Source of the DNA: Ilumatobacteraceae bacterium
GTDB lineage: Bacteria > Actinomycetota > Acidimicrobiia > Acidimicrobiales > Ilumatobacteraceae
Direction: 5' to 3'
Length of the DNA stretch: 64,000 bases
Assembly (NCBI GenBank): GCA_049696035.1
Contig: JBAVTH010000242.1
Coordinates: 4,472-68,471, forward strand
Below are positions 22,559 through 55,166 of this stretch, piece by piece (positions within the stretch are counted from its first letter, which is position 1; each line of letters starts with the position of its first letter). A model generated the notes under the pieces. The model was given only the letters and a program-made list of their open reading frames with translations. It ran no database searches and was not told the DNA's origin. The position numbers were made by a program, and so were the translations under genes.

Positions 22559-22603
22559 GTGTTCGCATCGTCCGCCCGACGATCGGATCGCTACGGTGCC
22601 GTC

Positions 22604-23338: not shown

Positions 23339-23395
23339 ACACGCTGGTCGCGTGGGGTTCACCATCGGCGTCGCTGAGCGCGCCATGATTGCCCG

Positions 23396-36814: not shown

Positions 36815-36871
36815 GCCGACGCACCCTACTCGCAGTCACCCAGGCGCTCGGCGGCCGGTACAGTCCGCCGA

Positions 36872-37861: not shown

Positions 37862-38468
37862 AGAGCACTTCGCTGCAGATCGGGCGGAAGCCGGCCGCGA
37901 GGAAGGCACGCACCGACGCGGCGTTGCCGGCCGCCACCTGCGCCCACACCCATTCGCCGGCCGGTGCCGCGGCGAGGCCGGCGGCGATCAACGCCCGCCC
38001 TGCGCCACGACCGTGCTCGACCTCGTCGAACAGTTCGACGGAGATCTCCCAGCGGTCGGCGAGACCATGGCCGATGGTGACCAGCCCGCGCTCGTCGCCG
38101 TGGACGGCGACGTTGCGACGATGGTGGTACGCACGTGCGGCTCGTGGATGATCCGTTCCGATGGTCGGCAGGGTCGCGGTGCCGACGGCTCTCGCCACGA
38201 GCACGATGTCGAGTGAGCCGATGTCGTGCTCACCCGCCAGCCACAGCTGTTGCGCGGGGTGCAGCGAGCCGCCGTAGGCATCGATTCCCCGCGCGGCGAC
38301 CTCGGCGGGGGAGCGGTCGGTGAGCAGCACGGTGTGCGCGCTGAATGCGACCACCGCATGGACGTCGCCGAACGGCGACAGCAGCCGCACGGTGCCGTCC
38401 GCCGCAGGAAAGCGGCCCTCGGCCGCGGCGTGCAACACGGTGGCAAGAGGATGGGGCGAGGCGGTCAT
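37842..38468 (-). CDS. GNAT-family N-acetyltransferase
   Basis: ORF 37842..38576 trimmed to the ATG at 38468. Acetyl-CoA motif VEHGRGAGRALIAAGL. The 3' end overlaps the kinase gene by 20 nt (convergent). Confidence 0.7.
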   Translation of the reverse strand: MTASPHPLATVLHAAAEGRFPAADGTVRLLSPFGDVHAVVAFSAHTVLLTDRSPAEVAARGIDAYGGSLHPAQQLWLAGEHDIGSLDIVLVARAVGTATLPTIGTDHPRAARAYHHRRNVAVHGDERGLVTIGHGLADRWEISVELFDEVEHGRGAGRALIAAGLAAAPAGEWVWAQVAAGNAASVRAFLAAGFRPICSEVLFTHHAD

Positions 38469-38493
38469 CGGCGCGCAAGCTACCGTGCCGAGC

Positions 38494-39447
38494 GTGACCG
38501 CGCCGATCGCAATCTCGATGGGAGACGCCTCCGGTGTCGGGCCGGAGATCGTCCTGCGCAGTTTCGTCGACGGCACGCTCGGCGACGACGTGGTGGTCTA
38601 CGGCGACGCAGCAATCCTCCACAACGGGGCCGCGCTGCTCGGCATGGATGTCGACTGGGGCCGCTTCCCACTGGTCGATCTGGGCCTGCTGACTGCTGCC
38701 GACCATCGGCCAGGTGAGCTCGATGGTGCCTCCGGCGCGGCGGCCCGCGCCTACGTCGAGCGGGCCACGCTCGACTCGCTCGCCGGCACCGTCAGCGGCA
38801 TCGTGACCATGCCGATGAACAAGGAGGCCACCCAGCTCAGCGACCCTGGGTTCGTCGGCCACACCGAGTTCATCGCCCAGCTGTGCGGTGTGCAGAAGGT
38901 GACGATGATGCTCACCGCAGCCACGGCGCACGGCTCGCTCGCGGTCACCCACGTCAGCACCCACGTCTCGCTGACGACGGCGATCGAGCGCGTGCGCGCC
39001 GAGCGGGTGCTCGACGTGATCCACCTCACCAACGACGTGTTGTCCCGCTTCCTCGATCGTCCGCGCATCGCAGTCTGCGGGCTCAACCCGCACGCCGGCG
39101 AGCACGGGCTGTTCGGGCGCGAGGACATCGAGCACATCGCACCGGCGATCGAGACGGCGGTCGCCGAAGGGATCGATGCCACGGGCCCCCACCCCGCCGA
39201 CACGGTGTTCTTCCAGGCTGTGCACCGCGGCCGCTACGACGCGATCGTGTGCATGTACCACGACCAGGGTCACGGCCCGATGAAGCTGTTGGCGTTCGAC
39301 ACGGGTGTCAACGTCACCCTCGGCCTGCCGATCGTGCGCACCTCGGTCGACCACGGCACGGCCTTCGACATCGCATGGAAGGGTGTGGCGTTCACCGACT
39401 CGTTGGGCCACGCGCTCGGCGTCGCCCGCCAGCTCATCGGTCGTTGA
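38494..39447 (+). CDS. PdxA-family NAD-dependent 4-hydroxythreonine-4-phosphate / 4-phospho-tetronate dehydrogenase
   Basis: ORF 38320..39447. Start set to the GTG at 38494 (38485 and 38518 are alternatives). Motifs MGDASGVGPEI, GFVGHTE, NPHAGE, HDQGH and TSVDHGTAFDIA. Confidence 0.85.
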   Translation: MTAPIAISMGDASGVGPEIVLRSFVDGTLGDDVVVYGDAAILHNGAALLGMDVDWGRFPLVDLGLLTAADHRPGELDGASGAAARAYVERATLDSLAGTVSGIVTMPMNKEATQLSDPGFVGHTEFIAQLCGVQKVTMMLTAATAHGSLAVTHVSTHVSLTTAIERVRAERVLDVIHLTNDVLSRFLDRPRIAVCGLNPHAGEHGLFGREDIEHIAPAIETAVAEGIDATGPHPADTVFFQAVHRGRYDAIVCMYHDQGHGPMKLLAFDTGVNVTLGLPIVRTSVDHGTAFDIAWKGVAFTDSLGHALGVARQLIGR

Positions 39448-39714: not shown

Positions 39715-41370
<1,656 letters not shown>

Positions 41371-41422: not shown

Positions 41423-42817
41423 ATGGAACCAGTGGCAATCGTGGGCGTTTCGGCGATCCTGCCCGACGCGCCCGACGCTGCAACCTTCTGGGACAACGTC
41501 TCGCGCGGTCGCTACTCGATCAGTGAGGTGCTGCCCAGCCGCTGGGATCCCGCCCTGTACTTCGACGAGGACCACGATGCCCCCGACAAGACGTACTCCA
41601 AGATCGGCGGTTGGGTCCGCGACTGGGAGTGGGACCCGCTGGCGTGGAAGCTGCCGATCCCGCCGAAGGTGAGCGATGCGATCGATGACGGCCAGAAGTG
41701 GGCCATTGCGTGCACCCGCGCAGTGCTGGCAGACCACGGCAAGCCGATCGATCATGAACGTACGGCCGTGATCCTCGGGAACGCGATGGCCGGTGAGCAC
41801 CACTACCAGACGGCGCTGCGCATCGCGACTCCCGAGATCGTCCGGGAGCTGCACAGCGCCCCGTCGTTCCAGCAGCTCCCGGCGGAGATGCGCTCGGCGA
41901 TCACCGAAGAGCTGGGCATTCGGATGAGCATGAACTACCCGGAGGTCACCGAGGACACGATGGCGGGCGAGTTGGGCAACGTGATGGCGGGACGGGTGGC
42001 CAACCTGTTCGACTTCCACGGACCGAACTTCATCGTCGACGCTGCCTGCGCCTCGGCGATGGCGGCCATCGACGCGTCGATCGAAGGGCTCATCGAGCAC
42101 GAGTTCGACACCGTGGTCACCGGTGGCATCGACCGCAACATGGGCGCGTCCAGCTTCGTGAAGTTCTGCAAGATCGGTGCACTGTCCGCAACGGGCACGC
42201 GCCCCTTCGACGCCGGCGCCGACGGATTCGTGATGGGGGAGGGCGCCGCCCTGTTCCTGCTGAAGCGGTTGGCCGACGCGGAACGCGACGGCGACCGCGT
42301 GTACGCAGTGCTGCGCGGCATCGCGGGCGCGAGCGATGGCAAGGGCAAGGGCATCACTGCGCCGAACCCGGTGGGCCAGCGGCTGGCGGTGGCGCGAGCA
42401 TGGTCGGCCGCTGGGCTGTCGCCGTCGGCGTGCGGTTTGATGGAGGCCCACGGCACCAGCACCCGCGTCGGCGACGTGGTGGAGGTGACCAGCCTCGGCG
42501 AGGTGTTCGCGAGTGCCGGCCTGGCCCCGGGCGCAGTGGCGCTGGGTTCGGCGAAGTCCAACATCGGCCACCTCAAGGCGGCCGCCGGCGCGGCAGGCAT
42601 CCTCAAGGCGACGCTGGCGCTGCACCACAAGGTGCTGCCGCCGAGCCTCAACTTCTCCGACCCGAACCCGAACATCGACTGGTCGACGTCGCCGTTCCGC
42701 GTGAACACGGAGCTGCGCGAGTGGTCGTCGCCTTCGGCAGGCGGCGTGCGAACGGCCGGTGTCAGTGCCTTCGGCTTCGGTGGCACCAACTTCCACGTGG
42801 TGCTGGAGGAGCACGTG
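41423..42817 (+). other. PKS domain KS1 (PfaA/HglE/PksE-like ketosynthase)
   Basis: DAACAS (Cys209, codon 42047-42049), EAHGTST, SNIGH and GGTNFHVVLEE. N-terminal insertion KIGGWVRDWEWDPLAWKLPIPPKV. Confidence 0.9.
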
Positions 42818-45800
42818 CCGGGCCGGCTGCGGTTCAACGCCCCGAAGATGGTGGCGGTCGGTGCCGACCTCGCGAGTGCGCCGGTGACGGCGGGCGTGGC
42901 CGAGCCGGCGTCGCTCCCCGGAAAGGCGCCGCTGCGAGGTGCGCTCCTGCTGGGCGCCACCAACCAGGCCGACCTCATCGAGCAACTGCGCGGGGTCCTG
43001 GCCGCAGCCGAGTCGGGCGTCGCCCCGGCAGCCGAGCAGCCCAGCGCAGCGGCGCTGGCCGCGCCGGAGCGCCTGGCCATCGACTACGGAGATGCTCGCG
43101 ACTTGGTGGACAAGGCGACGCGGGCGCTCGCCGCCTTCGAGACACCGGCGATGTGGACGATGCTGCGCGGTCGGGGCGTGTTCCGCGGCACGGGGCCGGC
43201 TGCACCGATCGCCTTCATGTACACCGGTCAGGGATCGCAGTACGTGAACATGCTCAGCCAACTGCGCGCCGTCGAGCCGATCGTCGCCGAGCGGTTCGTG
43301 GAGGCCGATCGCGTGATGACGCCATTGCTGGGCAAGCCGCTCAGCGACTACATCTTCATCGACGCCGCCGACCCCGCCGCCGTGGACGCTGCCGAGGAGG
43401 ATCTGCGCAACACGGAGATCACGCAACCGGCAGTGCTGGCGACCGACCTGGCCCTCACCGCCTTGTTGACGGCCTACGGCGTCGAGCCCGACATGGTCAT
43501 CGGCCACAGCCTGGGCGAGTACGGCGCGCTGGTGGCGGCCGGTGCGTTGTCGTTCCCCGGCGCCCTGGAAGCGGTGAGTGCCCGTGGGCACGAGATGGCC
43601 AGCCTCACCGTCGCGGACAACGGGATCATGGCCGCGGTCTTCGCGCCGGTGGACGAGGTGCAGCGCTTGGTGGACGGCATCGACGGCAACGTCGTGCTGG
43701 CCAACGTCAACTCGAACGCCCAGTCGGTGATCGGTGGTGCCACCACGGCAGTGGAGACAGCGCTGGCGGCATGCGAGGAGCGTGGCTGGCTGACAGCGCG
43801 CCTGACCGTGAGCCACGCGTTCCACACCAGCATCGTCGCTGCCGCCAGCGAGCCCCTGCGCCGCACCCTCGAGCGACTGGAGCTGCACGCGCCGATACGT
43901 CCGATCGTCTCGAACGTGACCGGCGAGTTCTATCCGATGGGTCCCGGTGTGGGTGAGACGATGCTCGATCTGTTGGCACAGCAGGTGGCATCTCCGGTGC
44001 AGTTCGTGAAGGGCCTGCACACGCTCTACGACGCGGGCGCCAGAGTGTTCGTCGAGGTCGGCCCCAAGCGCGCGCTGCACGGGTTCGCCACCGACGTGCT
44101 CGGTGAGGACGTCACCGTGCTGTTCACCAATCATCCCAAGCAGACCGATGTCGTCGCCTTCAACCAGGCCCTGTGCGGCCTGTATGCGGCCGGCCATGGC
44201 GCGGCGCGTGACGTCGCCGCCCAGTTCGCCGGCGCACCCACCGTCGCCGCTTCGGTGACCCCTACCTCGACCGATTCCACGAAAGTGAGCAGTGCTGTGC
44301 AGACCGATCTCGGAGCGCTCTTCGACGACTTCCTCGACAAGGCCCGCTCGCTGATGGGCGTCGGCGAGAGCCGGACCCGCACGAACGACGAGCCGGTCGT
44401 GATCACGGGCGCTGCGCTCGGCACGCCCGGCACGCAGCGGGTGTTCGACGACGAGAACCTCGCCCGTTTGCTGCACGGCGAGCAGTTGATCGACGTCATC
44501 CCGGGTCGTCTGCGCAACGAGATCCTCGACAAGCACATCGTTCGGCTGACCAAGAGCGAGACCCGTGGCGCGAGCTTCGAAGCGATCGACAGCGTCGCCG
44601 ATGTGATCAAGCTGGCGGGCCGTGCCGGCTCGTTCGACCTCGCCGCCGAGTTCGGTGTCGAAGCCGACCGCCTGGCCGCCCTCGGCCGAACCACTCAACT
44701 GGCGATCGGTGCTGGGCTCGACGCTCTGCGCGATGCCGGCATCCCGATCGTGCAGCGCTACAAGACCACCCATCTCGGCACCCAGCTGCCGGAGCGCTGG
44801 GGCCTGCCCGACGCGCTGCGCGACGAGACCGGCATCATCTTCGCCAGTGCGTTTCCCGGCCTGGAGGAACTGGCCGACGAGGTGCGCCGCTACGAACAGG
44901 ACCGGGCGCGGCGGCTCGAGCTGGACGAGCTGCAAGCCGTGCGTGCCCGGGTCGCGGAAGCCGACTCGGCCAGCGTGTCGCTGGTGGAGATCGACCGTCG
45001 CATCCACGACGTCCAGCGCGAGCTGGAAGTGCATCCGTATCTCTTCGACCGACGGTTCCTGTTCCGGGTGCTCTCGATGGGTCACTCGCAGTTCGCCGAG
45101 CTGATCGGCGCACGCGGTCCGAACACGCAGATCAACTCGGCGTGCGCCAGCACCACGCAGGCGATCTCGCTGGCCGAGGACTGGATCCGCGCCGGTCGTT
45201 GCCGACGGGTGATCGTCATCGCGGCCGACGATGCGACCAGCGACGACCTGCTCGGCTGGATCGGTGCCGGCTTCCTGGCGACGGGTGCCGCGGCGACCGA
45301 CGAGGACGTGACCGAGGCGGCGCTGCCGTTCGACAAGCGCCGCCACGGCATGATCATCGGAATGGGCGCCGCCGCGCTGGTCGTGGAGAGCGCCGACGCT
45401 GCGCGTGAGCGTGGTGTGCAGCCGATCTGCGAGGTGCTCGGAGCGGTCACCGCCAACAGCGCGTTCCACGGCACCCGTCTTGATGTCGAGCACATCGGCG
45501 GCATCATGGAGGCGGTGGTGCGCCAGGGCGAAGCACGAGGTGCCGATCGCGCGGCGATCGCCAGCGAGCTGGTGTTCGTCTCCCACGAGACCTACACACC
45601 GGCGCGCGGCGGAAGCGCCGCCGCCGAGATCCACGCGCTGCGGCACGTGTTCGGCGTCAACGCCGACCGCATCGTGATCGCCAACACCAAGGGCGTCACC
45701 GGCCACCCGATGGGAGTCGGTCTCGAGGACGTCGTGGCCGTGAAGGCGCTGGAGACCGGGATCGTGCCCCCTGTCGCCAACTTCCGCGAAGTGGATCCCG

Positions 45801-48800
45801 AGCTGGGTTCGCTCAACCTCTCTCGCGGAGGCTCGTACCCGGTGCGGTGTGCCTTGCGGCTGGCCGCCGGCTTCGGCTCGCAGATCAGCATGGTGTTGCT
45901 GCGCTGGACGCCGGTTGCGGACGGCCGTCACCGGGCCCCCGACCAGCTGGGGTACGCCTATCGGATCACTGACCAGGCCAGATGGTCGGGCTGGCTGCGG
46001 AGCATCTCCGGCCAGGAGTCGCCACAGATGGAAGTGGTGCAGCGCCGCCTGCGCATCGTCGACAATGGGCCCGGCGCGCCGGCCACCCCTGCGGCGGCAA
46101 CCCCCGCCGCAGTTGCACCCGTCGCGCCGCGTGCGGTCAACGCCGACACCGCTGCGGCGCCGGTTTCTCCGGCCCCGGCGCCGGCGCCCGCCGTCGCTGC
46201 ACTCGCCGTCGAAGCCGATCCGGTGGTCGCTGCAACGCCTTCAGCGCCTGCAGGGGATGAGGTGGCGGCGACGATCTTGCGGTTGGTGGCGGAGCAGACG
46301 GGGTATCCGCCGGAGATGTTGGATCTGGATCTGGATCTGGAGGCGGATCTGGGTGTGGACACGGTGAAGCAGGCGGAGTTGTTCGCGGCGGTGCGTGAGG
46401 CGTATGGGATCGAGCGTGACGACAAGTTGAAGTTGCGTGACTATCCGACGTTGGCGCATGTGATCGGCTTCGTGCACGATCGTGCCCCGCAGACCGTGCA
46501 GCTGCCGGCCGCTGTCGACGAGCCTGGCAACCTCGATGCGAACCCTGTGGACTCCGGCGACACCCCTCGGTTCCCGCGTCGTGTGCCCGTGCCGGTGGTG
46601 CGCCCTGCACTGGAACTGTGCGAGACAACCGGTGTGGAGTTGGCCGCCGGAGACCGGGTGGTCGTCTACCCCGATACCGGAGGCGCCGCCGTCGCCCTGA
46701 CGGCTTCGCTGGCGGAGATGGGTGTCGAGGTGCTGCTGGTCGACGCTGCGCCGGATCGTGCGACCTTGGAATCGACCCTGCAGGCGTGGCGAGCGGCCGG
46801 CCCCATCAGCGGTGTCTTCTGGTTGCCGGCTCTCGATCAGGTGGACCTCGCCGGGCTCGATCCGGCCTCGTGGTCGGAGGCGTTGCGCGTGCGCGTGAAG
46901 CTGCTGGCGACCACGATGCGCGTGCTGTACGACGACATGACGGCCGGGCACTTCCTGGTCAGCGCCGTCCGATTGGGTGGAAGCTTCGGCTACGACGTAC
47001 CCGGCGCGCAGGACGTGCTCGGTGGCGCCACCAGTGGCTTCACCAAAGCCCTGGCCCGGGAGCGGGCTGATGCGCTGGTCAAGGTGGTCGACTTCGCGAC
47101 AGCGACCCCGGCCGCCGAGGTGGCCGGCCAGCTGCTGGCCGAGGTCACGCACGACCCCGGCATCGTGGAGGTGGGCCGCGCGGGCGGCCTTCGTTGGGGC
47201 ATCGGCGTCGCCGAACGCGACGTCGCGGAGGATCCTGCTCGTCTGCTCGGGCCCGACGACGTGATCGTCGTCACCGGCGCCGCCGGCAGCATCGTCAGTG
47301 CGATCACCACCGACCTCGCAATGGCCTCGCGTGGCACGTTCCACCTCATCGACCTCACTCCCGAGCCGTTGGCCGACGACCCGGACCTGGAGCGCTTCGT
47401 CCACGATCACGACGGTCTCAAGGCCGACATCGCTCACCGCATCACCGAGCGCGGCGAGCGGGCGACTCCGGCGCTGGTCGAACGCGAGCTCGCCCGGCTG
47501 GAGCGGTCGCGGGCGGCGCTGGACGCGATCCAGGCCGTGCAGCGCGCCGGTGGCACCGTCCACTGGTACCAGGCCGATCTCACCGACTTCGCAGCAGTGC
47601 ACGCGGCCGTCGAGCAGATCGTCGCGAGGTCGGGACGGGTCGATGTGCTGCTGCACTGCGCAGGTCTCGAGATCAGCCGCTTCCTGCCCGACAAGACGGA
47701 TCGCGAGTACGACCTCGTCTTCGACGTGAAGAGCAACGGCTGGTTCCACCTGTTGCATGCGTTGGGCGACACCCCGCTCGGCGCCGCTGTCGTGTTCAGC
47801 TCGATCGCCGGCAGGTTCGGCAACGGCGGCCAGACGGACTACAGCGCTGCCAACGATCTGCTGTGCAAGAGCATCTCCGCCTTCCGTTCATCGCGGCCGG
47901 CGACACGAGGCGTCGCCATCGACTGGACAGCGTGGGCGAGCATCGGGATGGCGAGCCGTGGGTCCATCCCGAAGATGATGGCGATGGCCGGGATCGACAT
48001 GCTGCCACCGGAGGTCGGCATCCCGGTGGTCCGTCACGAGCTGACGGCCGCGGGCGCAGGCGGCGAAGTGGTGGTCGCCGGTTCGCTCGGGATCATGTTG
48101 GAGGAGTCGCCGACCGGTGGTCTCGACGCCGTGGCGGCAACCGCCGCGCTGGCGGGCAGCGAGTCGGGACCGATGATCGGCGAGATGGTCGCCTGCACCC
48201 TCCGCGACGGTTTGGTGGTGCGCACCACGCTCACCGCCGGCCAGCCGTTCCTGGACGATCACCGCATCGACGGCACCCCGGTGCTGCCGGGCGTGATGGG
48301 CATGGAGGCCTTTGCCGAAGCTGCCGCAGCGCTCGTGCCGGGGTGGGAGGTGCACTCCCTGAGCGACGTCGAGTTCCTTGCCCCGTTCAAGCTGTATCGC
48401 GACGACTCGCGTGTTGCCGAGATCCGTGCCCGGCTGCTGTGCGGTGAAGGAGGCTCGATCGTCGCCGAGTGCGCGCTGGTCGGTCGCCGGAGCCTCCCCG
48501 GCCAGCCCGAACAGGTCACCACCCACTTCGTCGGCAACGTGGTGCTCGCGCCGGCGGGCAGCGCCCGTCCGGCAGCGAGCGCGCCGGGTGCCACGGCCAA
48601 GAAGCCGCCGGCGTCCGCGGTCGCCGCCGGCAGCATCTACGAGATCTACTTCCACGGTCCCGCCTACCAGGTCCTCGACCAGGCGTGGGCCGAGGATGAG
48701 GTCGTCGTCGGCGCGACCCCGGCCGCGCTGCCGGCCAACCATCAGCCTGACGGCCGGCCGTTGCTGGCCTGGCCACGGCTGGTGGAGCTCTGCTTCCAGA

Positions 48801-49111
48801 CGGCCGGAGTCCACGAACTGGGCACTACTGGCTCGATGGCACTACCGGCCAAGGTCGGGCGTGTCGACATCGTCAGACCATCGAGCGGTGGCACCGGTTC
48901 GCTCGCTGGCGCTCGTGCCGTGGTGACCAGGGCAGGTGGTGGCGACGATGCAGTCGTCGTCGACGCCAAGGGCAAGGTGGTGCTGCACCTCAGTGGCTAC
49001 ACGACCACCGTGCTCCCCGGGGGCCCCGACGATGCGCTCCTGATGCCATTGAGGGCGGCGATGGTGGCAGCCGAGGCGGATCCCGCTCGCGGCCGGCGCA
49101 GCAGGAAGTGA
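41423..49111 (+). CDS. Iterative-type type I polyketide/secondary-lipid synthase with domain order KS-AT-KS-carrier-KR-DH (2562 aa)
   Basis: ORF 41261..49111 trimmed to the ATG at 41423 (MEPVAIVGVSAILPDAP...), with a GAAAGGA RBS at 41408-41414. See the domain entries. Confidence 0.95.
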   Translation: MEPVAIVGVSAILPDAPDAATFWDNVSRGRYSISEVLPSRWDPALYFDEDHDAPDKTYSKIGGWVRDWEWDPLAWKLPIPPKVSDAIDDGQKWAIACTRAVLADHGKPIDHERTAVILGNAMAGEHHYQTALRIATPEIVRELHSAPSFQQLPAEMRSAITEELGIRMSMNYPEVTEDTMAGELGNVMAGRVANLFDFHGPNFIVDAACASAMAAIDASIEGLIEHEFDTVVTGGIDRNMGASSFVKFCKIGALSATGTRPFDAGADGFVMGEGAALFLLKRLADAERDGDRVYAVLRGIAGASDGKGKGITAPNPVGQRLAVARAWSAAGLSPSACGLMEAHGTSTRVGDVVEVTSLGEVFASAGLAPGAVALGSAKSNIGHLKAAAGAAGILKATLALHHKVLPPSLNFSDPNPNIDWSTSPFRVNTELREWSSPSAGGVRTAGVSAFGFGGTNFHVVLEEHVPGRLRFNAPKMVAVGADLASAPVTAGVAEPASLPGKAPLRGALLLGATNQADLIEQLRGVLAAAESGVAPAAEQPSAAALAAPERLAIDYGDARDLVDKATRALAAFETPAMWTMLRGRGVFRGTGPAAPIAFMYTGQGSQYVNMLSQLRAVEPIVAERFVEADRVMTPLLGKPLSDYIFIDAADPAAVDAAEEDLRNTEITQPAVLATDLALTALLTAYGVEPDMVIGHSLGEYGALVAAGALSFPGALEAVSARGHEMASLTVADNGIMAAVFAPVDEVQRLVDGIDGNVVLANVNSNAQSVIGGATTAVETALAACEERGWLTARLTVSHAFHTSIVAAASEPLRRTLERLELHAPIRPIVSNVTGEFYPMGPGVGETMLDLLAQQVASPVQFVKGLHTLYDAGARVFVEVGPKRALHGFATDVLGEDVTVLFTNHPKQTDVVAFNQALCGLYAAGHGAARDVAAQFAGAPTVAASVTPTSTDSTKVSSAVQTDLGALFDDFLDKARSLMGVGESRTRTNDEPVVITGAALGTPGTQRVFDDENLARLLHGEQLIDVIPGRLRNEILDKHIVRLTKSETRGASFEAIDSVADVIKLAGRAGSFDLAAEFGVEADRLAALGRTTQLAIGAGLDALRDAGIPIVQRYKTTHLGTQLPERWGLPDALRDETGIIFASAFPGLEELADEVRRYEQDRARRLELDELQAVRARVAEADSASVSLVEIDRRIHDVQRELEVHPYLFDRRFLFRVLSMGHSQFAELIGARGPNTQINSACASTTQAISLAEDWIRAGRCRRVIVIAADDATSDDLLGWIGAGFLATGAAATDEDVTEAALPFDKRRHGMIIGMGAAALVVESADAARERGVQPICEVLGAVTANSAFHGTRLDVEHIGGIMEAVVRQGEARGADRAAIASELVFVSHETYTPARGGSAAAEIHALRHVFGVNADRIVIANTKGVTGHPMGVGLEDVVAVKALETGIVPPVANFREVDPELGSLNLSRGGSYPVRCALRLAAGFGSQISMVLLRWTPVADGRHRAPDQLGYAYRITDQARWSGWLRSISGQESPQMEVVQRRLRIVDNGPGAPATPAAATPAAVAPVAPRAVNADTAAAPVSPAPAPAPAVAALAVEADPVVAATPSAPAGDEVAATILRLVAEQTGYPPEMLDLDLDLEADLGVDTVKQAELFAAVREAYGIERDDKLKLRDYPTLAHVIGFVHDRAPQTVQLPAAVDEPGNLDANPVDSGDTPRFPRRVPVPVVRPALELCETTGVELAAGDRVVVYPDTGGAAVALTASLAEMGVEVLLVDAAPDRATLESTLQAWRAAGPISGVFWLPALDQVDLAGLDPASWSEALRVRVKLLATTMRVLYDDMTAGHFLVSAVRLGGSFGYDVPGAQDVLGGATSGFTKALARERADALVKVVDFATATPAAEVAGQLLAEVTHDPGIVEVGRAGGLRWGIGVAERDVAEDPARLLGPDDVIVVTGAAGSIVSAITTDLAMASRGTFHLIDLTPEPLADDPDLERFVHDHDGLKADIAHRITERGERATPALVERELARLERSRAALDAIQAVQRAGGTVHWYQADLTDFAAVHAAVEQIVARSGRVDVLLHCAGLEISRFLPDKTDREYDLVFDVKSNGWFHLLHALGDTPLGAAVVFSSIAGRFGNGGQTDYSAANDLLCKSISAFRSSRPATRGVAIDWTAWASIGMASRGSIPKMMAMAGIDMLPPEVGIPVVRHELTAAGAGGEVVVAGSLGIMLEESPTGGLDAVAATAALAGSESGPMIGEMVACTLRDGLVVRTTLTAGQPFLDDHRIDGTPVLPGVMGMEAFAEAAAALVPGWEVHSLSDVEFLAPFKLYRDDSRVAEIRARLLCGEGGSIVAECALVGRRSLPGQPEQVTTHFVGNVVLAPAGSARPAASAPGATAKKPPASAVAAGSIYEIYFHGPAYQVLDQAWAEDEVVVGATPAALPANHQPDGRPLLAWPRLVELCFQTAGVHELGTTGSMALPAKVGRVDIVRPSSGGTGSLAGARAVVTRAGGGDDAVVVDAKGKVVLHLSGYTTTVLPGGPDDALLMPLRAAMVAAEADPARGRRSRK
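43205..44120 (+). other. PKS domain AT (malonyl-type acyltransferase)
   Basis: GQGSQ, GHSLGE (Ser696, codon 43508-43510) and SHAFHT. Confidence 0.9.
44390..45907 (+). other. PKS domain KS2 (FabF-like ketosynthase with a charged helical insertion)
   Basis: NSACAS (Cys1241, codon 45143-45145), SHETYTP and NTKGVTGHPMG. Insertion at about 44850-45060. Confidence 0.85.
46256..46490 (+). other. PKS carrier-protein-like domain with Thr at the phosphopantetheine-serine position
   Basis: LDLDLEADLGVDTVKQAELF. ACG (Thr1647) at 46361-46363 occupies the position of the canonical DS(L/I) serine. By hand translation the roughly 78-aa domain has no Ser at all. Confidence 0.75.
46520..48110 (+). other. PKS domain KR (structural and catalytic subdomains)
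   Basis: VIVVTGAAGSIV (from 47261), SSIAGRFGNGGQTDYSAAN (Tyr2140, codon 47840-47842). Confidence 0.85.
48170..48990 (+). other. PKS domain DH (polyketide-synthase-type double hotdog)
   Basis: LDDHRIDGTPVLPG (His2280, codon 48260-48262), YFHGPAYQVL and ELCFQTAG. Confidence 0.8.
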
Positions 49112-50300
49112 CCGAGATGGCGACCATCACCCGACTGGCCATCGTCAATCGCGGCGCCGCCGCGATGCGGCTGATCAACGCTGCCCGCGAATACGCCGCC
49201 GAGTTGCAGCGCGACCTGCAGATCGTCGCCGTTCACGTCGATGCCGACGCTCGCTCCCTGTTCGTGCGGGAAGCCGACTTCGCGGTTCGGGTCGACGGCC
49301 CGATCTCCGTCGACAACCTCGATGCGCTGGAGGAGGCACTGAGGCTGGCGGAGGTTGACGGCGCATGGGTCGGTTGGGGTCCACTCGCGCAGCAACCGGC
49401 GTTCGCGGAGATGTGCGTGCGGATGGGCATCACCAACGTCGGCCTCGGCGCGGACACGCTGAGGAGCATCGCCGATCGCTCGCTGCTGCAGGCCGCGGCC
49501 GAGTCTGCCGGCGGTCGCCTCTCGCCGTTGGAGATCGTCGAGCGCGGATACGCCCGCCACATCGAGGTGCTCGTGGCCGGCGACCGCTTCGGCGACGTGT
49601 GGGCCGTCGGCGTCCACGATGGCACCCTGCAGCGGCGCTCGGAGAAGGTGCTGGTCGAGTCGGCAGACGAGCGGTTGATCGGGGTGGCCGGCGATCTGCT
49701 GCGTTCGGTGGCCGTTCGCGTGGCCTCACTGACGGGTGTGGTGGGTGCGGCCACGATCGCATTCGTCCGCGAGGACCTCGCTGCCGATGTGTCGCTCCTC
49801 CGCATCAGCGGCGGTCTTCCCCTTGGTCATGGCGTCACCGAGATCGCCGGTGGCATCGACCTGGCGAAGCTGCAACTGCACATCGCCGAAGGCGGACGCC
49901 TCGTCGGGGCCGCGCCGATCGGTGACGGGCATGCGATCGCGGTGCGTCTCAACGCCGAGGATGCCGAGTTGGGTTTCGCCCCGGCTCCGGGGCGCGTCCT
50001 GCTGCTGCAGGTGCCCACCGGCCCCGGCCTGCGCATCGACCCGGCCGTTTCGGAGGGTGATGTCGTGCGCCCCGGCGACGACCCGACGCTGGCGGAGGTG
50101 GTTGCCTGGGGTCGTGATCGGGACGAGGCGCGGGTGCGGCTGCGTCGTGCGCTCGCCCAGCTGCCGGTCGTCCTGGACGGTGGAACGACGAACAAGGGCT
50201 TCCTGCTGGATCTGCTCGACCGCGCGGAGGTGCGCGCCGGTCAGTACGACACCGGCTGGCTCGACCGGCTGGCTGCCGCGGGTGAGACCGCAGGCCGCGA
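49108..50300 (+). other. Degenerate biotin-carboxylase (ATP-grasp) domain
   Basis: By-eye alignment to E. coli AccC. About 60-65 residues carrying the glycine-rich lid are absent, and the Mg/ATP/bicarbonate residues are substituted (see finding). Confidence 0.65.
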
Positions 50301-53300
50301 GCACGGTGACAAGGCGGTGCTGATGGCCGCGGTCGACGCCTACGACGAGCGGCAGCGGAGCAGTCGCGCCCGTCTGTTCGCCACCGCGAGACGCGGCCGG
50401 CCAGAGGTGTCGAGTGAGCTCGGGCATCGCGTCGAGCTGTGTCACCGAGGCAACGAGTACGGGGTCTTCGTGCGCCGCACGGGCCGCCGGCAGTACCGGG
50501 TGGCCGTCGACGGTGTCGAGATCGGTCTGGTCGTCACCCGCCTCGGCCGTTACCAGAGCCGGCTCGACGTAGGGGGCCGGTCGCACCGCATCGTGTCCGC
50601 CATTCAGGCCGGCGACCACTTGGTGGAGGTGGACGGAGTGCCGCACCGGCTCTCGCGGGGCGACGGCGGCATCGTTCGATCCGGGCTGCCCGGTGTGGTG
50701 GTTGCCGTCCACGTCCAAGTCGGCGACGAGGTCGCGGTGAACGATGCGCTCGCCACCATCGAGAGCATGAAGATGGAGAGCCCGGTGCTCGCCCCGTTCG
50801 CCGGGAGGGTTCGCCAGGTCTGCATCGGCACCAACGTCCAGGTCGACTCGGGTGCGCCGCTGGTGCATCTCGAGCCGATCAGCCACGGCCGGGCCGCGCT
50901 CGGGGAGTCGCGATGCACGTTCAGCGCCCCCGACGACCCTGCCCTTCCGTCGGTGGCGAGCCGCTTCGCGGCGAACCTCGACACGCTGACGCGGCTGATC
51001 ATGGGGTACGACGTGGCCGTCGCGGCGACCAAGCGTGTCGCCGCCGAACAGGTGGACATCGCTCGCGAGTTGGGCGCCGATGCGCCCGAGCGCGTCGTCG
51101 GTGAGCTGCGCCTGCTGGATGTCTTCGCCGACGTGCGCGCTCTGTTCCGCAGTGAACGCGATCCGAGCGGCAACGACCTGGAAGAGGCCGATCTGCTGGT
51201 GACCAGCCCGCAGGAGTACATGCACGCCTTCCTGCGGGCGCCGGGCCCCAACGTGGAAGGGGTGCCGCAGCGCTATCTCGAGGCGCTCGGTCGCGCGCTC
51301 GCCCACTACGGCATTCGCTCCCTCGAGCACACCGAGGCGTTGGAGGAGGCGCTCTTCTGGATCATGCAGTCCCGCGGTCGCATCGACGCCCAGGTGCCCG
51401 TCATCGTGGCGGTGCTGAACCACTGGCTGGACCGCCCGGCCGTCGGTGTCGGCGAACAGTTGCGCGAGACGCTCGACCGTTTGGTGGCAGCGACACAACG
51501 CGACCATCCGGTGATCGCCGATCTCGCGCGGGAGGTGCGCTTCACCGCCATCGACCGGCCCATCGTGGATGCTGTCCGGCGCGACGTGCTGACGGCCGCC
51601 CTTGCGCATCTCGACGATCTGGTGGCAGGCAACGGCGACCGTGCGGGTCATCTGGAGGCGATCGTCGCCTGCGCGGAACCGTTGGAGTTCGCCTTGCTCG
51701 ATCGGGCCCGCTCCGGGACCGTGGCCACTGCCGATGCCGTCGCTGAACTGCTGACTCGCCGGCACCACCGGTGGGGCACCTTCGGTGAGTTCACCCGACT
51801 CGGGCACGCGCCGGTGGCGATGGCCGTTGATCACGTGGCAGACGACGGCGCCACCGTTCGAATCGTTGCCGCCTGCGCACCCTTCTCGTCACTGACGGCG
51901 GCGGTCGCGGCTGTGCTCGATCATGCTCGCGACAGCGCGACGCCCGTGCAGGCCGAGGTCTACACATGGCTGGACGACGGTGATGTGGACGACGACGCGG
52001 TGACGGCTGCCGCCGAGGCTGCACTGGCGCATCACTGGACGGGCGACGCCGACACCTCCGTGCAGTATGCGGTGATCGCGGTGGCGGGGACGTCGGAGGA
52101 CTCGGACCTGGGTGATCGGCGCGTGTTGCACGTGACGTTCCGGCCCACGCTCGAGGGTTTGGTCGAGGATCGGTTCCTCCGCGGATTGCACCCGATGATG
52201 GCCGAGCGGTTGCGCCTGTGGCGCCTCTCGAACTTCAACTTGGAGCGCCTTGCCTCGACCACGGGGGTGCACCTGTTCCGTGGCATCGGTCGAGACAACG
52301 CGAGCGACGAACGTCTCTTCGCAATCGCCGAAGTGCGCGACCTGACGCCGGTGCGCGATGACGGCGGCCGCATCGTCGCGCTCCCGGAGCTGGAGCGCAC
52401 CCTGCTGGCGGCGATGGAGGCCATCCGCCGCGTCCAGGCGCCGCGTCCGTTGGGTCAGCGCCTGTGGTGGAACCGGATCGTGCTGCGGGTGTGGCCGCCG
52501 GTGACGTTCAGCCCCGAGGAGATCGGGCGTCTTGCCGCCGAGCTCGCCGGGGCGGCGACAGGGCTTGGGTTGGAGGAGGTGCACGTGCTGTGCTCCCGTG
52601 TCGATGCCGCCACCGGGGCGAAACGCGACGTCGCGCTGCGGTTCACGAGCACGACGGGCTCGAGCTTCGTGCTGCGCGAGACCGAGCAGCCCACCGAGCC
52701 CCTGGTGCCGCTCGACGAGTACTCGAGGAAGGTCGTGCAGAGCCGCCGCCGAGGGACGATCTATCCCTACGAGCTGATCCGTGGGTTGGTGGCGCCGCAT
52801 GCCGGCGGCCGGTCCGAGATCACCGGTGGCGGCTTCACCGAGTACGACCTGGGCGAGACCGGCGCGCTCGTGCCCGTGCACCGACCACCGGGGCGAAACG
52901 TCGCCAGCATCGTCGTGGGAGTGGTGACCAACACGTCCGACCGATACCCGGAGGGCATGATCAGGGTCGCGTTGCTCGGCGACCCGACACGAGCCCTCGG
53001 CGCCTTGGCAGAGCCCGAGTGCGTGCGGATCATGGCCGCCATCGATCTCGCGGAGCAGATGGGAGTGCCGGTGGAGTGGTATGCGCTGTCGGCCGGCGCC
53101 AAGATCGCGATGGACAGCGGTACCGAGAACATGGACTGGATCGCCGACGTGCTGCGGCGCATCATCGAGTTCACCCAGCAGGGTGGGGAGATCAACGTCG
53201 TGGTCACGGGCATCAACGTCGGTGCCCAGCCGTACTGGAACGCCGAGGCGACGATGCTGATGCACACCAAGGGCATCTTGGTGATGACGCCGTCGAGTGC

Positions 53301-54468
53301 GATGGTGCTCACCGGCAAGCAGGCGCTCGACTTCAGCGGTGGTGTGTCGGCGGAGGACAACCACGGCATCGGCGGCTACGAGCGGGTGATGGGGCCCAAC
53401 GGCCAGGCCCAGTACTGGGCGGCCGACGTACCGGCCGCCTGTGGTGTCTTGCTCGCGCACTACGCCCACAGCTACTCGGCGCCCGGCGAACGCTTCCCGC
53501 GACGGGCGGCGACGTCCGACCCGTTCGACCGAGACGTCCGCTCGGCGCGGCATCACCTGGAGGGCTCCGACCTGGCAACCGTCGGCGACATCTTCAGCGA
53601 GCACAGCAACCCGGAACGCAAGAAGCCCTTCGACATCCGCTCGGTCATGCGGGCCGTGCTCGATGCCGATCACCAGCCGCTCGAACGGTGGGCCGACCTC
53701 GCGGAGAGCGACACAGCGGTGGTGTGGGACGGCCAACTCGGTGGTATCCCCGTCTGTGTCATCGGCATCGAGGCCCACGCACTCGCCCGTCAAGGTCGTC
53801 TGCCTGCTGACGGCCCCGATCAGTGGACATCAGGCACCCTCTTCCCGATGTCGTCGAAGAAGATCGCCCGGGCGGTCAACGCCACGAGCGGCAGCCAGCC
53901 GCTCGTCGTGCTCGCGAACCTGTCCGGTTTCGACGGCTCTCCCGAGTCGATGCGGCGCACCCAGCTCGAGTTCGGTGCCGAGATCGGCCGTGCGGTGGTG
54001 AACTTCCGCGGCCCGATCGTGTTCTGCGTGGTCAGTCGCTTCCATGGCGGAGCGTTCGTGGTCTTCAGTCAGAAGCTGAACCCGATGCTCGAGACGCTGG
54101 CCGTCGAGGGGTCGCACGCCTCGGTGATCGGCGGGTCGCCGGCGGCGGCGGTGGTCTTCGCCGGGGAGGTGGAGAAGCGCACCCGTGCCGATGCCCGCGT
54201 CGTGGAGCTGGAGGCGCGGATCGCATCTGCGGCGCCGGGTGAGCGCGCCACGTTGCGCAGCGAACTGGTGACGACGCTTGCACAGGCGCACTCGGATCAA
54301 CTGGGCGCGGTGGCGGCCGAGTTCGACGCGATCCACAGCGTGGAGCGTGCGCTGGCGGTGGGATCGGTGAGCCGGATCATTCCGGCCGCACAACTGAGGC
54401 CGTTGCTGATCGATGCGGTGGAACGTGGGATGAGCCGTGCGGTCGAACGGTCGAGTGGGGAGATGTGA
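49108..54468 (+). CDS. Single-chain multidomain biotin carboxylase-like protein with eukaryote-style layout (BC-like, BCCP, central region, carboxyltransferase); 1786 aa
   Basis: The GTG at 49108 overlaps the PKS stop (GTGA); the ATG at 49117 is an alternative. BC-like N-terminus (IVNRGAAAMRLI..., ARHIEVLVAGD, QRRSEKV). Biotinyl motif IESMKME (Lys555, codon 50770-50772). CT strings SAGAKIAMDSG, LGGIPVCVIGIE and LANLSGFDGS. Confidence 0.9.
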   Translation: MTEMATITRLAIVNRGAAAMRLINAAREYAAELQRDLQIVAVHVDADARSLFVREADFAVRVDGPISVDNLDALEEALRLAEVDGAWVGWGPLAQQPAFAEMCVRMGITNVGLGADTLRSIADRSLLQAAAESAGGRLSPLEIVERGYARHIEVLVAGDRFGDVWAVGVHDGTLQRRSEKVLVESADERLIGVAGDLLRSVAVRVASLTGVVGAATIAFVREDLAADVSLLRISGGLPLGHGVTEIAGGIDLAKLQLHIAEGGRLVGAAPIGDGHAIAVRLNAEDAELGFAPAPGRVLLLQVPTGPGLRIDPAVSEGDVVRPGDDPTLAEVVAWGRDRDEARVRLRRALAQLPVVLDGGTTNKGFLLDLLDRAEVRAGQYDTGWLDRLAAAGETAGREHGDKAVLMAAVDAYDERQRSSRARLFATARRGRPEVSSELGHRVELCHRGNEYGVFVRRTGRRQYRVAVDGVEIGLVVTRLGRYQSRLDVGGRSHRIVSAIQAGDHLVEVDGVPHRLSRGDGGIVRSGLPGVVVAVHVQVGDEVAVNDALATIESMKMESPVLAPFAGRVRQVCIGTNVQVDSGAPLVHLEPISHGRAALGESRCTFSAPDDPALPSVASRFAANLDTLTRLIMGYDVAVAATKRVAAEQVDIARELGADAPERVVGELRLLDVFADVRALFRSERDPSGNDLEEADLLVTSPQEYMHAFLRAPGPNVEGVPQRYLEALGRALAHYGIRSLEHTEALEEALFWIMQSRGRIDAQVPVIVAVLNHWLDRPAVGVGEQLRETLDRLVAATQRDHPVIADLAREVRFTAIDRPIVDAVRRDVLTAALAHLDDLVAGNGDRAGHLEAIVACAEPLEFALLDRARSGTVATADAVAELLTRRHHRWGTFGEFTRLGHAPVAMAVDHVADDGATVRIVAACAPFSSLTAAVAAVLDHARDSATPVQAEVYTWLDDGDVDDDAVTAAAEAALAHHWTGDADTSVQYAVIAVAGTSEDSDLGDRRVLHVTFRPTLEGLVEDRFLRGLHPMMAERLRLWRLSNFNLERLASTTGVHLFRGIGRDNASDERLFAIAEVRDLTPVRDDGGRIVALPELERTLLAAMEAIRRVQAPRPLGQRLWWNRIVLRVWPPVTFSPEEIGRLAAELAGAATGLGLEEVHVLCSRVDAATGAKRDVALRFTSTTGSSFVLRETEQPTEPLVPLDEYSRKVVQSRRRGTIYPYELIRGLVAPHAGGRSEITGGGFTEYDLGETGALVPVHRPPGRNVASIVVGVVTNTSDRYPEGMIRVALLGDPTRALGALAEPECVRIMAAIDLAEQMGVPVEWYALSAGAKIAMDSGTENMDWIADVLRRIIEFTQQGGEINVVVTGINVGAQPYWNAEATMLMHTKGILVMTPSSAMVLTGKQALDFSGGVSAEDNHGIGGYERVMGPNGQAQYWAADVPAACGVLLAHYAHSYSAPGERFPRRAATSDPFDRDVRSARHHLEGSDLATVGDIFSEHSNPERKKPFDIRSVMRAVLDADHQPLERWADLAESDTAVVWDGQLGGIPVCVIGIEAHALARQGRLPADGPDQWTSGTLFPMSSKKIARAVNATSGSQPLVVLANLSGFDGSPESMRRTQLEFGAEIGRAVVNFRGPIVFCVVSRFHGGAFVVFSQKLNPMLETLAVEGSHASVIGGSPAAAVVFAGEVEKRTRADARVVELEARIASAAPGERATLRSELVTTLAQAHSDQLGAVAAEFDAIHSVERALAVGSVSRIIPAAQLRPLLIDAVERGMSRAVERSSGEM

Positions 54469-55166
54469 CGCACACGGCGGCCGCCGTCGTCCACTGGCTG
54501 CAACGAAGGTTGCACGACCTGCCGGACGGGGATGGGTGGCTCTCGACACGTGAACGCACGGTGCAGGACCGTCTGGTGGTGCCGAAGCGGCGGGCGGATT
54601 GGCGCCTCGGTAGATGGACGGCGAAGGCTCTTGTAGCGGCGGTACTCGATGTGGAGGTGGTGCGAGTCTCGATCATCGCCGCCCCCGACGGCGCCCCGGA
54701 GGCCCTCGTGGACGAGTTGCCTGCACCGATCTCGTTGTCCATCAGCCATCGAGCCGGGGTCGGGTTGGCCGCGGTGGGTGAGCACGTCGTGGTCGGTGGT
54801 GATCTGGAGGTGATCGAGCCCCGGTCGCCGGCATTCGTGCGCGAGTGGTTCGGCGAGCACGAGCAGGCGTTGATCGCCGAGATCCGCGATCCCCGGCGGC
54901 GCGACGAGCTGACGTGTCTGCTGTGGTCGGTGAAGGAGGCCTCGGCGAAGGTGCTGCGGGAGGGTTTGCGACTCGATCCGCGAGGCGCGTCGGTGGTCCT
55001 GGACGACGACCGGGTGCCCGACGAACCGAGTGGTCACTGGCAGCGCTCGACGGTGCGGTGGGCCACGGAGGGCCGTGTCGTCTCCGGGTGGTGGCGCGTC
55101 GACGGGTCGTTCGTACGAGCGATCGCGGGTGATCGGCCCACCGACGTACCTCAGGAGCTGCGGTGA
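54465..55166 (+). CDS. Sfp-type 4'-phosphopantetheinyl transferase
   Basis: 233 aa. The GTG at 54465 overlaps the carboxylase stop (GTGA). Motifs SISHRAG, VGGDLE and WSVKEASAK. Confidence 0.85.
   Translation: MTHTAAAVVHWLQRRLHDLPDGDGWLSTRERTVQDRLVVPKRRADWRLGRWTAKALVAAVLDVEVVRVSIIAAPDGAPEALVDELPAPISLSISHRAGVGLAAVGEHVVVGGDLEVIEPRSPAFVREWFGEHEQALIAEIRDPRRRDELTCLLWSVKEASAKVLREGLRLDPRGASVVLDDDRVPDEPSGHWQRSTVRWATEGRVVSGWWRVDGSFVRAIAGDRPTDVPQELR

Follow-up and report, generated by a model that had tools for sequence, protein, structure and literature searches.

A single-chain carboxylase with an inactive biotin carboxylase domain

The stretch of DNA studied here, called the window, is 64 kb long and comes from an Ilumatobacteraceae bacterium (contig JBAVTH010000242.1). 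It carries, at 49108..54468 on the forward strand, the gene of a protein of 1786 amino acids (from GTG 49108) that resembles acetyl-CoA carboxylase (ACC). In this window carboxylase, the biotin carboxylase (BC) domain appears dead, whereas the biotin carboxyl carrier protein (BCCP) domain and the carboxyltransferase (CT) domain are intact. ATP-dependent carboxylation by the protein of its own biotin appears essentially excluded, because the BC lid and the MgATP and bicarbonate residues are absent and because, in an engineered pyruvate carboxylase, a lid deletion alone is inactivating (PMC5059739). We infer that the biotin must still cycle, with carboxybiotin coming from outside the dead BC site. 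Tentatively, we propose that it is supplied in trans by a live BC.

The protein is identical to NCBI entry MGB8859532.1, from an Ilumatobacteraceae metagenome-assembled genome (MAG), which starts at ATG 49117 (1783 aa) and is named 'carboxyl transferase domain-containing protein'. Its domains follow one another as BC-BT-BCCP-central-CT in one chain, the order of the SACE_4237 type, and are matched by Pfam in the order PF00289, PF02786 (partial), PF02785, PF00364, PF08326, PF01039. Intact members of the family are 45-57% identical to it over the full length. Architecture, biotinyl motif and CT conservation together place the window carboxylase in the SACE_4237-type multidomain ACC family.

Damage to the biotin carboxylase domain

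Residue numbers below are those of E. coli AccC (PDB 1bnc_A, 449/449 identical), and amino-acid positions in the window carboxylase are counted from GTG 49108. Each sequence observation of the initial annotation was confirmed. All features of the protein lie on the forward strand. The N-terminal (A) domain of BC persists as a relic (49126..49452, aa 7-115; PF00289 Biotin_carb_N, 66 bits). In it, as the initial annotation had read by eye, NRGE has become NRGA (aa 14-17), so that E12 is replaced by Ala. In the same relic, WVGWGFVAE has become WVGWGPLAQ.

The match to PF00289 stops at aa 115 and is followed by the scar of a B-domain lid deletion (49453..49551, aa 116-148), where an intact BC has about 95 residues. 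The loss of the GDK lysine is confirmed, with IADR at aa 121-124 placing Arg at K116. A gap of about 12 residues had also been noted; AAAESAGG (aa 129-136) is indeed followed by exactly 12 residues (RLSPLEIVERGY) and then by ARHIEVLV (aa 149), and the E. coli counterpart, between KKAGVP and PRHVEIQ, has 78 residues. Aligned to E. coli 131-204, the window carboxylase has 11 residues as compared to 73 in 148 intact relatives. Pfam, phmmer against the PDB and the alignment all agree that the lid, its glycine-rich loop (GGGGRG) and K159 are missing. Indeed, residues 116-148 of the query face about 138-211 of the PDB BC chains, positions 206-446 of the NCBIfam AccC models align to aa 149-390, and PF02786 is matched by its second half only (profile positions 92-208 of 211).

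This half-match corresponds to the BC central-domain relic (49552..49902, aa 149-265). There, FEFL is replaced by IAFV (aa 217), which changes E276 to Ala, and the Mg/bicarbonate motif FMEVNARLQVEHPVTE is remodelled to LLRISGGLPLGHGVTE (49795..49842, aa 230-245), with E288, N290 and R292 turned into Arg, Ser and Gly, as already reported in the initial annotation. Further losses had escaped it: Q294 to Pro, the general base E296 to Gly, and E87 to Gln. The MgATP ligands K116, E276, E288 and N290 are thus Arg, Ala, Arg and Ser in the window carboxylase. In the bicarbonate/biotin set, R292 and E296 are both Gly, and K238 and R338 are retained. The alignment also upholds the retention of H209, K238 (QRRSEKV) and R338 (AVRLNAED), to which the equivalents of E211, Q233, D382, R366 and R401 can be added. 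The BC C-terminal domain is well conserved (49942..50265, aa 279-386; PF02785 Biotin_carb_C, 87 bits). Among the hallmarks of an active BC, the fold of the A- and C-domains alone is found. The earlier proposal that the protein cannot charge its own biotin with ATP and bicarbonate is strongly supported by the joint absence of the lid, the Gly loop, K159, the Mg ligands, N290, R292 and E296.

The remainder of the chain looks very different. The BCCP (biotinyl) domain (50683..50871, aa 526-588; PF00364 Biotin_lipoyl, 50 bits) has an intact motif, ESMKME, with the biotinyl Lys555 encoded at 50770..50772. It is followed by the central non-catalytic region typical of eukaryote-type ACC (50893..52857; PF08326 ACC_central, 44 bits, aa 1009-1146) and by the CT domain (52915..54204; PF01039 Carboxyl_trans, 103 bits, aa 1270-1699). 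The loops SAGAKIAMDSG and HGGAFVVFS are present, and the columns that are invariant in intact enzymes are kept in CT, as expected from its initial description as intact. From its sequence, the CT domain is apparently fully functional. The view that both BCCP and CT still work is strongly supported by the invariant columns that they keep.

The loss is shared by a clade and contrasts with intact relatives

The initial annotation had asked for a comparison with orthologues to see whether the deletion is family-wide. Among the 120 best database relatives, 32 cluster representatives (90% identity), standing for 185 sequences, make up what we call the dead clade. Its members are 54-100% identical and 1744-1821 aa long, all but one falling within 1776-1821 aa. 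The lid deletion is carried by 32 of the 32 representatives, and K116, E276, E288 and N290 are likewise changed in 32/32 (K116 to Arg, Pro or Glu; E276 to Ala, Thr or Ser; E288 to Arg or His; N290 to Ser). The substituted residues of the remodelled motif (R, S, G, P, L, G in LLRISGGLPLGHG) do not vary across the clade, the E288 position being listed as R/H. The complete canonical set is kept by 148 intact relatives, including loci fetched from genomes, whose divergence is equal or greater. Because relatives as divergent or more so keep all these positions and all 32 clade members lack them, the sequence comparison indicates a loss pattern far beyond chance. An assembly artefact was rejected, since the 185 sequences sharing the dead BC come from NCBI, ENA, JGI and Logan assemblies. 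NCBI labels in the clade include Ilumatobacteraceae, Candidatus Nanopelagicales and Nitriliruptoraceae, and the proteins are all named as ordinary carboxylases.

When the BC region is left out, a neighbour-joining (NJ) tree shows the dead clade as monophyletic, next to intact actinobacterial sequences linked to a polyketide synthase (PKS), and with no rate acceleration outside BC. The NJ trees have very short deep branches and no support values; they are used here for the monophyly of the clade and the scatter of dead forms, not for exact counts of losses. One representative that groups beside the dead clade (P0062), apparently linked to the PKS cassette described below, has the lid and has already lost K116, E276 and N290, a state that hints at stepwise decay.

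Two further searches were made. A full-protein scan of a genome collection with generic patterns (e.g. TIESMKME) kept 80 loci, almost all of them intact relatives, and revealed PKS cassettes with an intact BC. A homologue search with the relic alone gave only short or fragmentary proteins and not the full-length clade; it brought up further lid-less fragments and the protein P0155 discussed below.

The relic is folded and under selection

Conservation was compared over columns identical in at least 97% of the 148 intact enzymes, a column counting as kept when the same residue stands in at least 90% of the dead clade. In CT, 185 of 195 invariant columns are kept and 1 is lost; in BCCP, 9 of 11 are kept and none is lost; in the central region, 37 of 50 are kept with 1 lost. 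In the BC central domain, by comparison, 20 of 47 are kept and 17 lost, and the 14 columns of the B-domain lid are all lost by deletion (0 kept). The window carboxylase itself keeps 184/187 invariant CT columns. The biotinyl Lys (MKM motif) is near-invariant across the dead clade.

Pairwise identity within the clade averages 65% in the BC central domain, the same as in BCCP (65%) and above the central region (50%), and 78% in CT. For the nearer pairs, Nei-Gojobori dN/dS is 0.18-0.30 in the relic, 0.22-0.31 in BT plus BCCP, 0.34-0.52 in the central region and 0.12-0.21 in CT, figures that are rough as dS is near saturation. The BC relic, the BCCP tether, the central region and CT are all under purifying selection.

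A structure prediction had been suggested to look for an ATP-grasp lid. The AlphaFold2 model of aa 4-453 (pLDDT 88.8, pTM 0.85) shows a confident BC fold. With this model, BC structures make up all of the top Foldseek matches (E about 1e-37, TM 0.75-0.80), and coverage of the target is highest for the lid-less chains 5ks8_A and 5mlk_B, the latter an AccA3 chain; the TM score relative to the target is 0.86 for 5ks8_A. At the BC dimer interface as defined in E. coli, the positions equivalent to E23, R366 and R401 do not vary. Tether lengths are also unchanged, with 47 aa from BT to Lys in both dead and intact groups and 76 versus 77 aa from Lys to the central region; longer BCCP linkers, considered as an adaptation to a foreign BC, were therefore rejected, none having been found in this comparison.

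Overall, the selective loss of columns, the conservation within the clade, the low dN/dS and the confident BC-fold model indicate that the N-terminal 390 residues are a stable, folded and conserved pseudo-biotin-carboxylase, not a decaying remnant.

Dead biotin carboxylase domains recur with live carboxyltransferases

Scattered lid-less or substituted BC forms are found elsewhere in the family (P0038, P0053/P0095, P0117, L036, P0123, P0137, P0138, P0187). They differ from one another in deletion boundaries and residue signatures. An exhaustive HMMER search was run with the first 600 residues against 1.84 billion cluster representatives, and 117 of the 150 best matches had a complete BC region. 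Of these 117, 26 are lid-less and heavily substituted, a fraction biased upward since the query itself has no lid; another 6 have the lid and two or more catalytic substitutions, and the other 85 look intact. Among the lid-less representatives, nine that are full-length retain 10-12 of 12 invariant BCCP columns, biotinyl Lys included, and 174-183 of 187 CT columns, the same as intact controls, whereas only 42-69 of their 106 invariant BC columns are kept. In the NJ tree, whose branches carry no support values, dead forms take up at least five or six distinct positions. From these comparisons, the single-chain ACC with dead BC and live CT is a recurrent stable state.

A new catalytic site in the pocket of the relic was considered and rejected, since the residues there differ between independent dead lineages, several of which lack K238 and R338 as well.

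Two of these loci may be described. A more eroded pseudo-BC (P0335; locus L091, 10001..15379 of contig_5869 of ERZ25039600) occurs in the same cassette as that of the window. In this protein, PF02786 is undetectable and K238 and R338 are lost, yet 183/187 invariant CT columns are kept. Downstream of this cassette lie genes for a glycerol-3-phosphate dehydrogenase, a 4HBT thioesterase and an AMP-binding/ACP/acyltransferase_3 protein, which hint at a glycerolipid-type product. Another dead form, P0095, is encoded between the gene of a 649-aa KSIII-type condensing enzyme and a polyhydroxyalkanoate (PHA) synthase gene, and some other dead-BC forms have no adjacent PKS. On the metagenome contigs with P0095 (L084/L085, 8077..17075), the KSIII-like gene overlaps the ACC start, PhaC flanks, and genes of the SDR and patatin families are nearby. 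The gene order suggests a possible malonyl-CoA-dependent route to PHA that uses a dead-BC carboxylase.

The carboxylase belongs to a polyketide synthase cassette

All genes of the cassette are on the forward strand. The first (39715..41370) encodes an acyl-CoA dehydrogenase (ACAD)-family protein of 551 aa (Pfam Acyl-CoA_dh_N/M/1). It is followed by a PfaA-like iterative type I PKS (41423..49111; NCBIfam omega_3_PfaA, 809 bits), read with Pfam as KS1-AT(malonyl)-KS2-ACP-KR-DH, where KS is ketosynthase and AT acyltransferase, then by the carboxylase gene and by that of a Sfp/HetI-type 4'-phosphopantetheinyl transferase (PPTase; 54465..55166; PF01648, PF17837, NCBIfam HetI). The carboxylase start overlaps the PKS stop and the carboxylase stop overlaps the PPTase start, both through GTGA. 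The open reading frame (ORF) called mechanically for the PKS begins at 41261 and shares about 110 nt with the end of the ACAD gene. Translation probably starts at ATG 41423, which lies past the ACAD stop and is preceded by an AAGGA ribosome-binding site; the Pfam KS match begins at the position of this ATG. The first 54 codons of the mechanical ORF are likely untranslated.

The AT of the PKS (~2.6 kaa) carries GHSLGE and HAFH, a malonyl-CoA signature. A second full KS follows the AT (44162..46000, PKS aa ~1040-1560; from phmmer against the PDB). Its active-site Cys and both His residues are present, which sets it apart from Gln-type chain-length factors. Its motifs are conserved in all cassettes from Acidobacteriota to Actinomycetota.

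The order ACAD-PKS-ACC-PPTase is found in the window and in all five other dead-clade loci that could be read, as well as in the separate L091 locus and in about 50 loci with an intact BC; the ACAD gene is directly upstream of the PKS in all the dead- and intact-BC cassettes examined. An intact-BC ACC occurs in this cassette in dozens of genomes of Acidobacteriota (Terriglobia), in Solirubrobacterales and in other genomes, including an Acidimicrobiia MAG (P0155, locus L090). The KS1 Cys, the KS2 Cys and His and the AT HAFH are identical between dead-BC and intact-BC cassettes. A correlated change in the PKS (a Cys-to-Gln decarboxylase in KS2, or altered AT specificity) was considered and rejected, none having been found in this comparison. 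Because the same cassette has an intact BC elsewhere with identical PKS motifs, the ancestral state appears to be a dedicated complete ACC feeding a malonyl-CoA-consuming synthase, from which only the ATP step was lost in one actinobacterial lineage.

At two dead-clade loci, L088 (P0008) and L089 (P0027), the PKS is called as several fragments and the carboxylase is intact; at L089 the PPTase is also missing. The fragmentation could reflect frameshift errors of long reads or real PKS decay.

Outside the cassette, the genes of the window belong to unrelated metabolism. In the interval immediately upstream (36590..39444, +), a PdxA-family dehydrogenase gene stands beside that of a four-carbon acid sugar kinase-like protein (SBD_N/NBD_C), a pair typical of threonate/erythronate-type catabolism and probably unrelated to the cassette. 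At 15638..18637 (-) lies the gene of an unusual 999-aa protein in which an APH-type phosphotransferase, a peptidase M23 domain and a class-III aminotransferase are fused. A DAO plus GCV_T fusion resembling dimethylglycine/sarcosine dehydrogenase (20060..23383, -) and a 708-aa flavin amine-oxidase-like protein (23396..25519, +) are unrelated to the carboxylase finding.

Source of carboxybiotin

The possibilities listed in the initial annotation, a trans-acting BC, a transcarboxylase or decarboxylase, and a scaffold, still cover the live options, none of which is proven. Charging of the biotin in trans by a live BC is the reading that we favour, while holding it to be somewhat short of an even prospect. 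BT, the biotinylated BCCP, the central region and CT would then form the working carboxyltransferase half of a single-chain ACC, dedicated to the adjacent malonyl-CoA-consuming PfaA-like synthase and still making malonyl-CoA, and its biotin would be carboxylated by a live BC encoded elsewhere in the genome. Most plausibly, this BC would be that of an intact multidomain ACC paralogue dimerised with the dead-BC protein. In such a heterodimer, the relic would give the BC-BC dimer contact and CT would give half of each composite CT site. Alternatively, the donor may be an AccA-type BC-BCCP alpha subunit of primary metabolism. In either case the part left to the relic would be architectural, to provide a dimer contact and to position the swinging arm, and no longer catalytic.

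A heterodimer would explain the kept fold of the relic, its dimer contact, the tether geometry, the central region, the composite CT sites and the recurrence after duplication. Recurrence in several lineages and contexts is indeed what is expected of a duplicated subunit of a dimeric enzyme. Because the PKS motifs are identical in dead and intact cassettes, a role in malonyl-CoA supply would still be needed. Both an intact multidomain ACC unlinked to a PKS (L035) and dead-clade members are found in Nitriliruptoraceae MAGs, so that a possible live partner exists at the level of this family. By analogy, the sharing of a BC in trans would have actinobacterial precedent, as BC-BCCP alpha subunits are common to several CTs; MccB, a CT of a PKS cluster, works with the alpha subunit of primary metabolism (PMC5187497).

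Several points weigh against charging in trans. With E. coli AccC as tblastn query, no BC gene was found within 10 kb of nine dead-BC loci or in the 64-kb window; therefore, a dedicated partner is not encoded locally. The genome scan, whose loci were almost all those of intact relatives, yielded no dead-clade genome shown to carry an intact multidomain paralogue or an AccA-type subunit. If the protein is a homodimer like SACE_4237, contact between two relics would occupy the interface needed by a foreign BC. Each BCCP of yeast ACC probably uses the BC of its own protomer, and cross-charging in a heterodimer is therefore hypothetical. Finally, to our knowledge, all natural biotin enzymes that have no BC load their biotin at the CT side.

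A lid provided in trans was also sought, and tblastn of an intact B domain against the window gave no match. A weak B-domain match at L001 15476..16765 (-), in the Nanopelagicales MAG JAWKJK010000001.1, was rejected as a conserved partner, being absent from the window and from L003. The corresponding 429-aa protein has a weak ATP-grasp-like signature (GYPLYMKPFDGGGWRGV) and no significant Pfam match, and is encoded convergently to the dead ACC.

The main alternative, possible but rather unlikely, is that the enzyme is an ATP-independent transcarboxylase. Its biotin would be loaded at CT from a carboxy-acyl-CoA such as methylmalonyl-CoA and unloaded onto acetyl-CoA at the same site (ping-pong), giving malonyl-CoA for the PKS without ATP, with the BC relic, BT and the central region serving as a scaffold for folding and stability. 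The pseudo-BC single-chain ACCs could then be widespread, recurrently evolved ATP-independent acyl-CoA:acyl-CoA transcarboxylases, a generalisation that we hold with the same reserve. The intact CT and BCCP next to a dead BC are consistent with this mechanism, which, being self-contained, also fits the absence of a BC gene near the nine dead-BC loci. All known natural biotin enzymes without BC (transcarboxylase and Na+-decarboxylases) load from the CT side, and a recurrent origin would be easy, since exchange between malonyl-CoA and acetyl-CoA is already catalysed by every ACC. Moreover, SACE_4237 accepts acetyl-, propionyl- and butyryl-CoA, so that one CT could serve both donor and acceptor (PMC6491548). 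However, the selection acting on the BC relic, BT, the central region and the exact tethers is unexplained if BCCP stays at CT. Just one of the 195 invariant CT columns is changed, which gives no sign of adaptation to a second substrate. Pfam on the large ORFs shows no second carboxyl-handling module (5S-type CT) in the window, and literature searches found no dedicated acyl-CoA:acyl-CoA enzyme of this kind.

It is improbable that the protein is a non-catalytic or regulatory subunit, one that does not turn over its own biotin and serves the PKS or a live ACC as scaffold or regulator. Regulation of live enzymes is indeed a frequent role of pseudoenzyme paralogues, and the relic is folded in all lineages. 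A scaffold-only role, as offered in the initial annotation, would suit the BC relic but does not fit the whole protein: the biotinyl Lys, MKM and about 95% of the invariant CT columns are kept over deep divergence and in about ten further dead-BC clusters.

Slightly more improbable still is a biotin-dependent malonyl-CoA decarboxylase, in which CT would move CO2 to biotin for discharge, providing an acetyl primer or controlling the malonyl-CoA level. Biotin decarboxylases are known in soluble and membrane forms, neither CT nor BCCP is damaged, and the dead clade keeps the equivalents of K238, R338 and D382, which contact biotin and bicarbonate in E. coli BC. However, other dead lineages have lost K238 and R338 and have differing signatures, with no convergent new active site. 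Acetyl-CoA is not limiting, the AT is malonyl-specific, and destruction of the extender beside its consumer makes little sense. The production of acetyl starters from malonyl thioesters, given as an example in the initial annotation, becomes the least attractive option: the PKS sites and malonyl AT are unchanged, and the P0095-type lineage adjoins a malonyl-consuming KSIII-type enzyme. The same two observations argue for a supply role, not a destructive one, and the lineage linked to KSIII and PhaC points likewise to supply.

Lastly, it is very improbable that the BC is active through non-canonical residues, for which the retained H209, K238 and R338 speak and nothing more (lid, Gly loop, Mg ligands and general base are gone, and the engineered lid deletion alone is inactive), or that we are dealing with a pseudogene in decay or with an artefact of assembly, given 1786 open codons, dN/dS well below 1 in every domain and 185 sequences from independent assemblies.

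Significance of the pseudo-biotin-carboxylase

The data suggest that the ATP step of a two-step biotin carboxylase machine has been naturally, repeatedly and stably discarded, while the biotin arm, CT and the swinging-arm architecture were kept. Public annotation as 'fused acetyl/propionyl-CoA carboxylases' credits the dead-BC proteins with an ATP-dependent activity that they almost certainly lack, and the same credit passes into metabolic reconstructions for the abundant Actinomycetota of aquatic habitats (Ilumatobacteraceae, Nanopelagicales, Nitriliruptoraceae). For this enzyme family, both a partnership of pseudoenzyme and enzyme in a eukaryote-like ACC and an ATP-free route to malonyl-CoA would be new. 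If true, transcarboxylation would represent an enzyme activity and a mode of extender-unit supply not described before. PKS cassettes that differ only in having a dead or an intact ACC offer a clean natural system to study BC-BCCP-CT communication in single-chain ACCs, and may help to find the lipid made by the widespread 'Type R' synthase considered below.

Comparison with known systems

In the library consulted, full-text searches turned up neither a natural ACC with a pseudo-BC domain nor a PKS-linked transcarboxylase. The closest characterised enzyme is SACE_4237 of Saccharopolyspora erythraea, the first bacterial eukaryote-like single-chain acyl-CoA carboxylase to be characterised (Livieri et al. 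2019, PMC6491548). As in SACE_4237, the window carboxylase is one chain of about 200 kDa with the order BC-BT-BCCP-central-CT and an ACC_central region, of actinobacterial origin and from a homodimeric family. SACE_4237 is however an essential, ATP-dependent housekeeping enzyme, whereas the window carboxylase has neither the lid nor the MgATP/bicarbonate residues and is linked to a PKS within an operon.

The cassette resembles the 'Type R' secondary-lipid cluster (Shulse & Allen 2011), in which an ACC gene of Koribacter versatilis lies between homologues of pfaA and of the PPTase gene pfaE (PMC3098273). In both, a PfaA-like KS-MAT-KS/CLF-ACP-KR(-DH) protein is followed by ACC and PPTase, and here an acyl-CoA dehydrogenase comes first. 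Type R-like cassettes occur in dozens of Acidobacteriota and Actinomycetota genomes; literature searches found no paper identifying their product. Unlike the Type R cassettes of Acidobacteriota, Solirubrobacterales and some Acidimicrobiia (P0155), whose ACC has an intact BC, those of the clade of the window have a dead one.

A lid-less BC has been obtained by engineering. In the pyruvate carboxylase of Methylobacillus flagellatus, BC residues 131-201 were replaced with a short linker (PDB 5KS8; Choi et al. 2016, PMC5059739). This B-domain-deleted enzyme folds, assembles and is biotinylated, but is catalytically inactive (PMC5059739). The window carboxylase shares with this construct a deleted lid and a kept BC fold, and the construct is among the best structural matches to the relic model. 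In the laboratory construct, the other catalytic residues are intact; in the window carboxylase, the deletion is natural, ancient and under selection, and catalytic residues are replaced as well.

Natural biotin enzymes without BC comprise the Propionibacterium transcarboxylase and the Na+-translocating oxaloacetate, methylmalonyl-CoA and glutaconyl-CoA decarboxylases. They work by CT and biotinyl-BCCP chemistry with no ATP step, a mode with which the parts of the window carboxylase would be compatible, and the resemblance goes no further than this missing step. A BC relic is absent from these enzymes, and a second module (5S CT or a membrane beta subunit) accepts or releases their carboxyl group; AccC tblastn and Pfam on the large ORFs found no second BC, 5S-type CT or decarboxylase beta subunit in the window.

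MccB of the stambomycin cluster (PMC5187497) is likewise a CT beside a PKS that provides an extender unit, with the ATP step outsourced to primary metabolism, as we propose here. Free-standing beta subunits of the MccB type use the BCCP of the alpha subunit, whereas the CT of the window carboxylase shares one chain with BCCP, BT, the central region and the BC relic. A comparable PKS-associated carboxyltransferase is AccD4, which adjoins Pks13 in mycobacteria. In the heteromeric ACC of plants, finally, the BADC proteins are pseudo-subunits that resemble BCCP without its biotinyl lysine and have an inhibitory role. In both cases a dead paralogue of an ACC component is retained; in BADC the dead module is BCCP, whereas here BC is dead and BCCP is intact.

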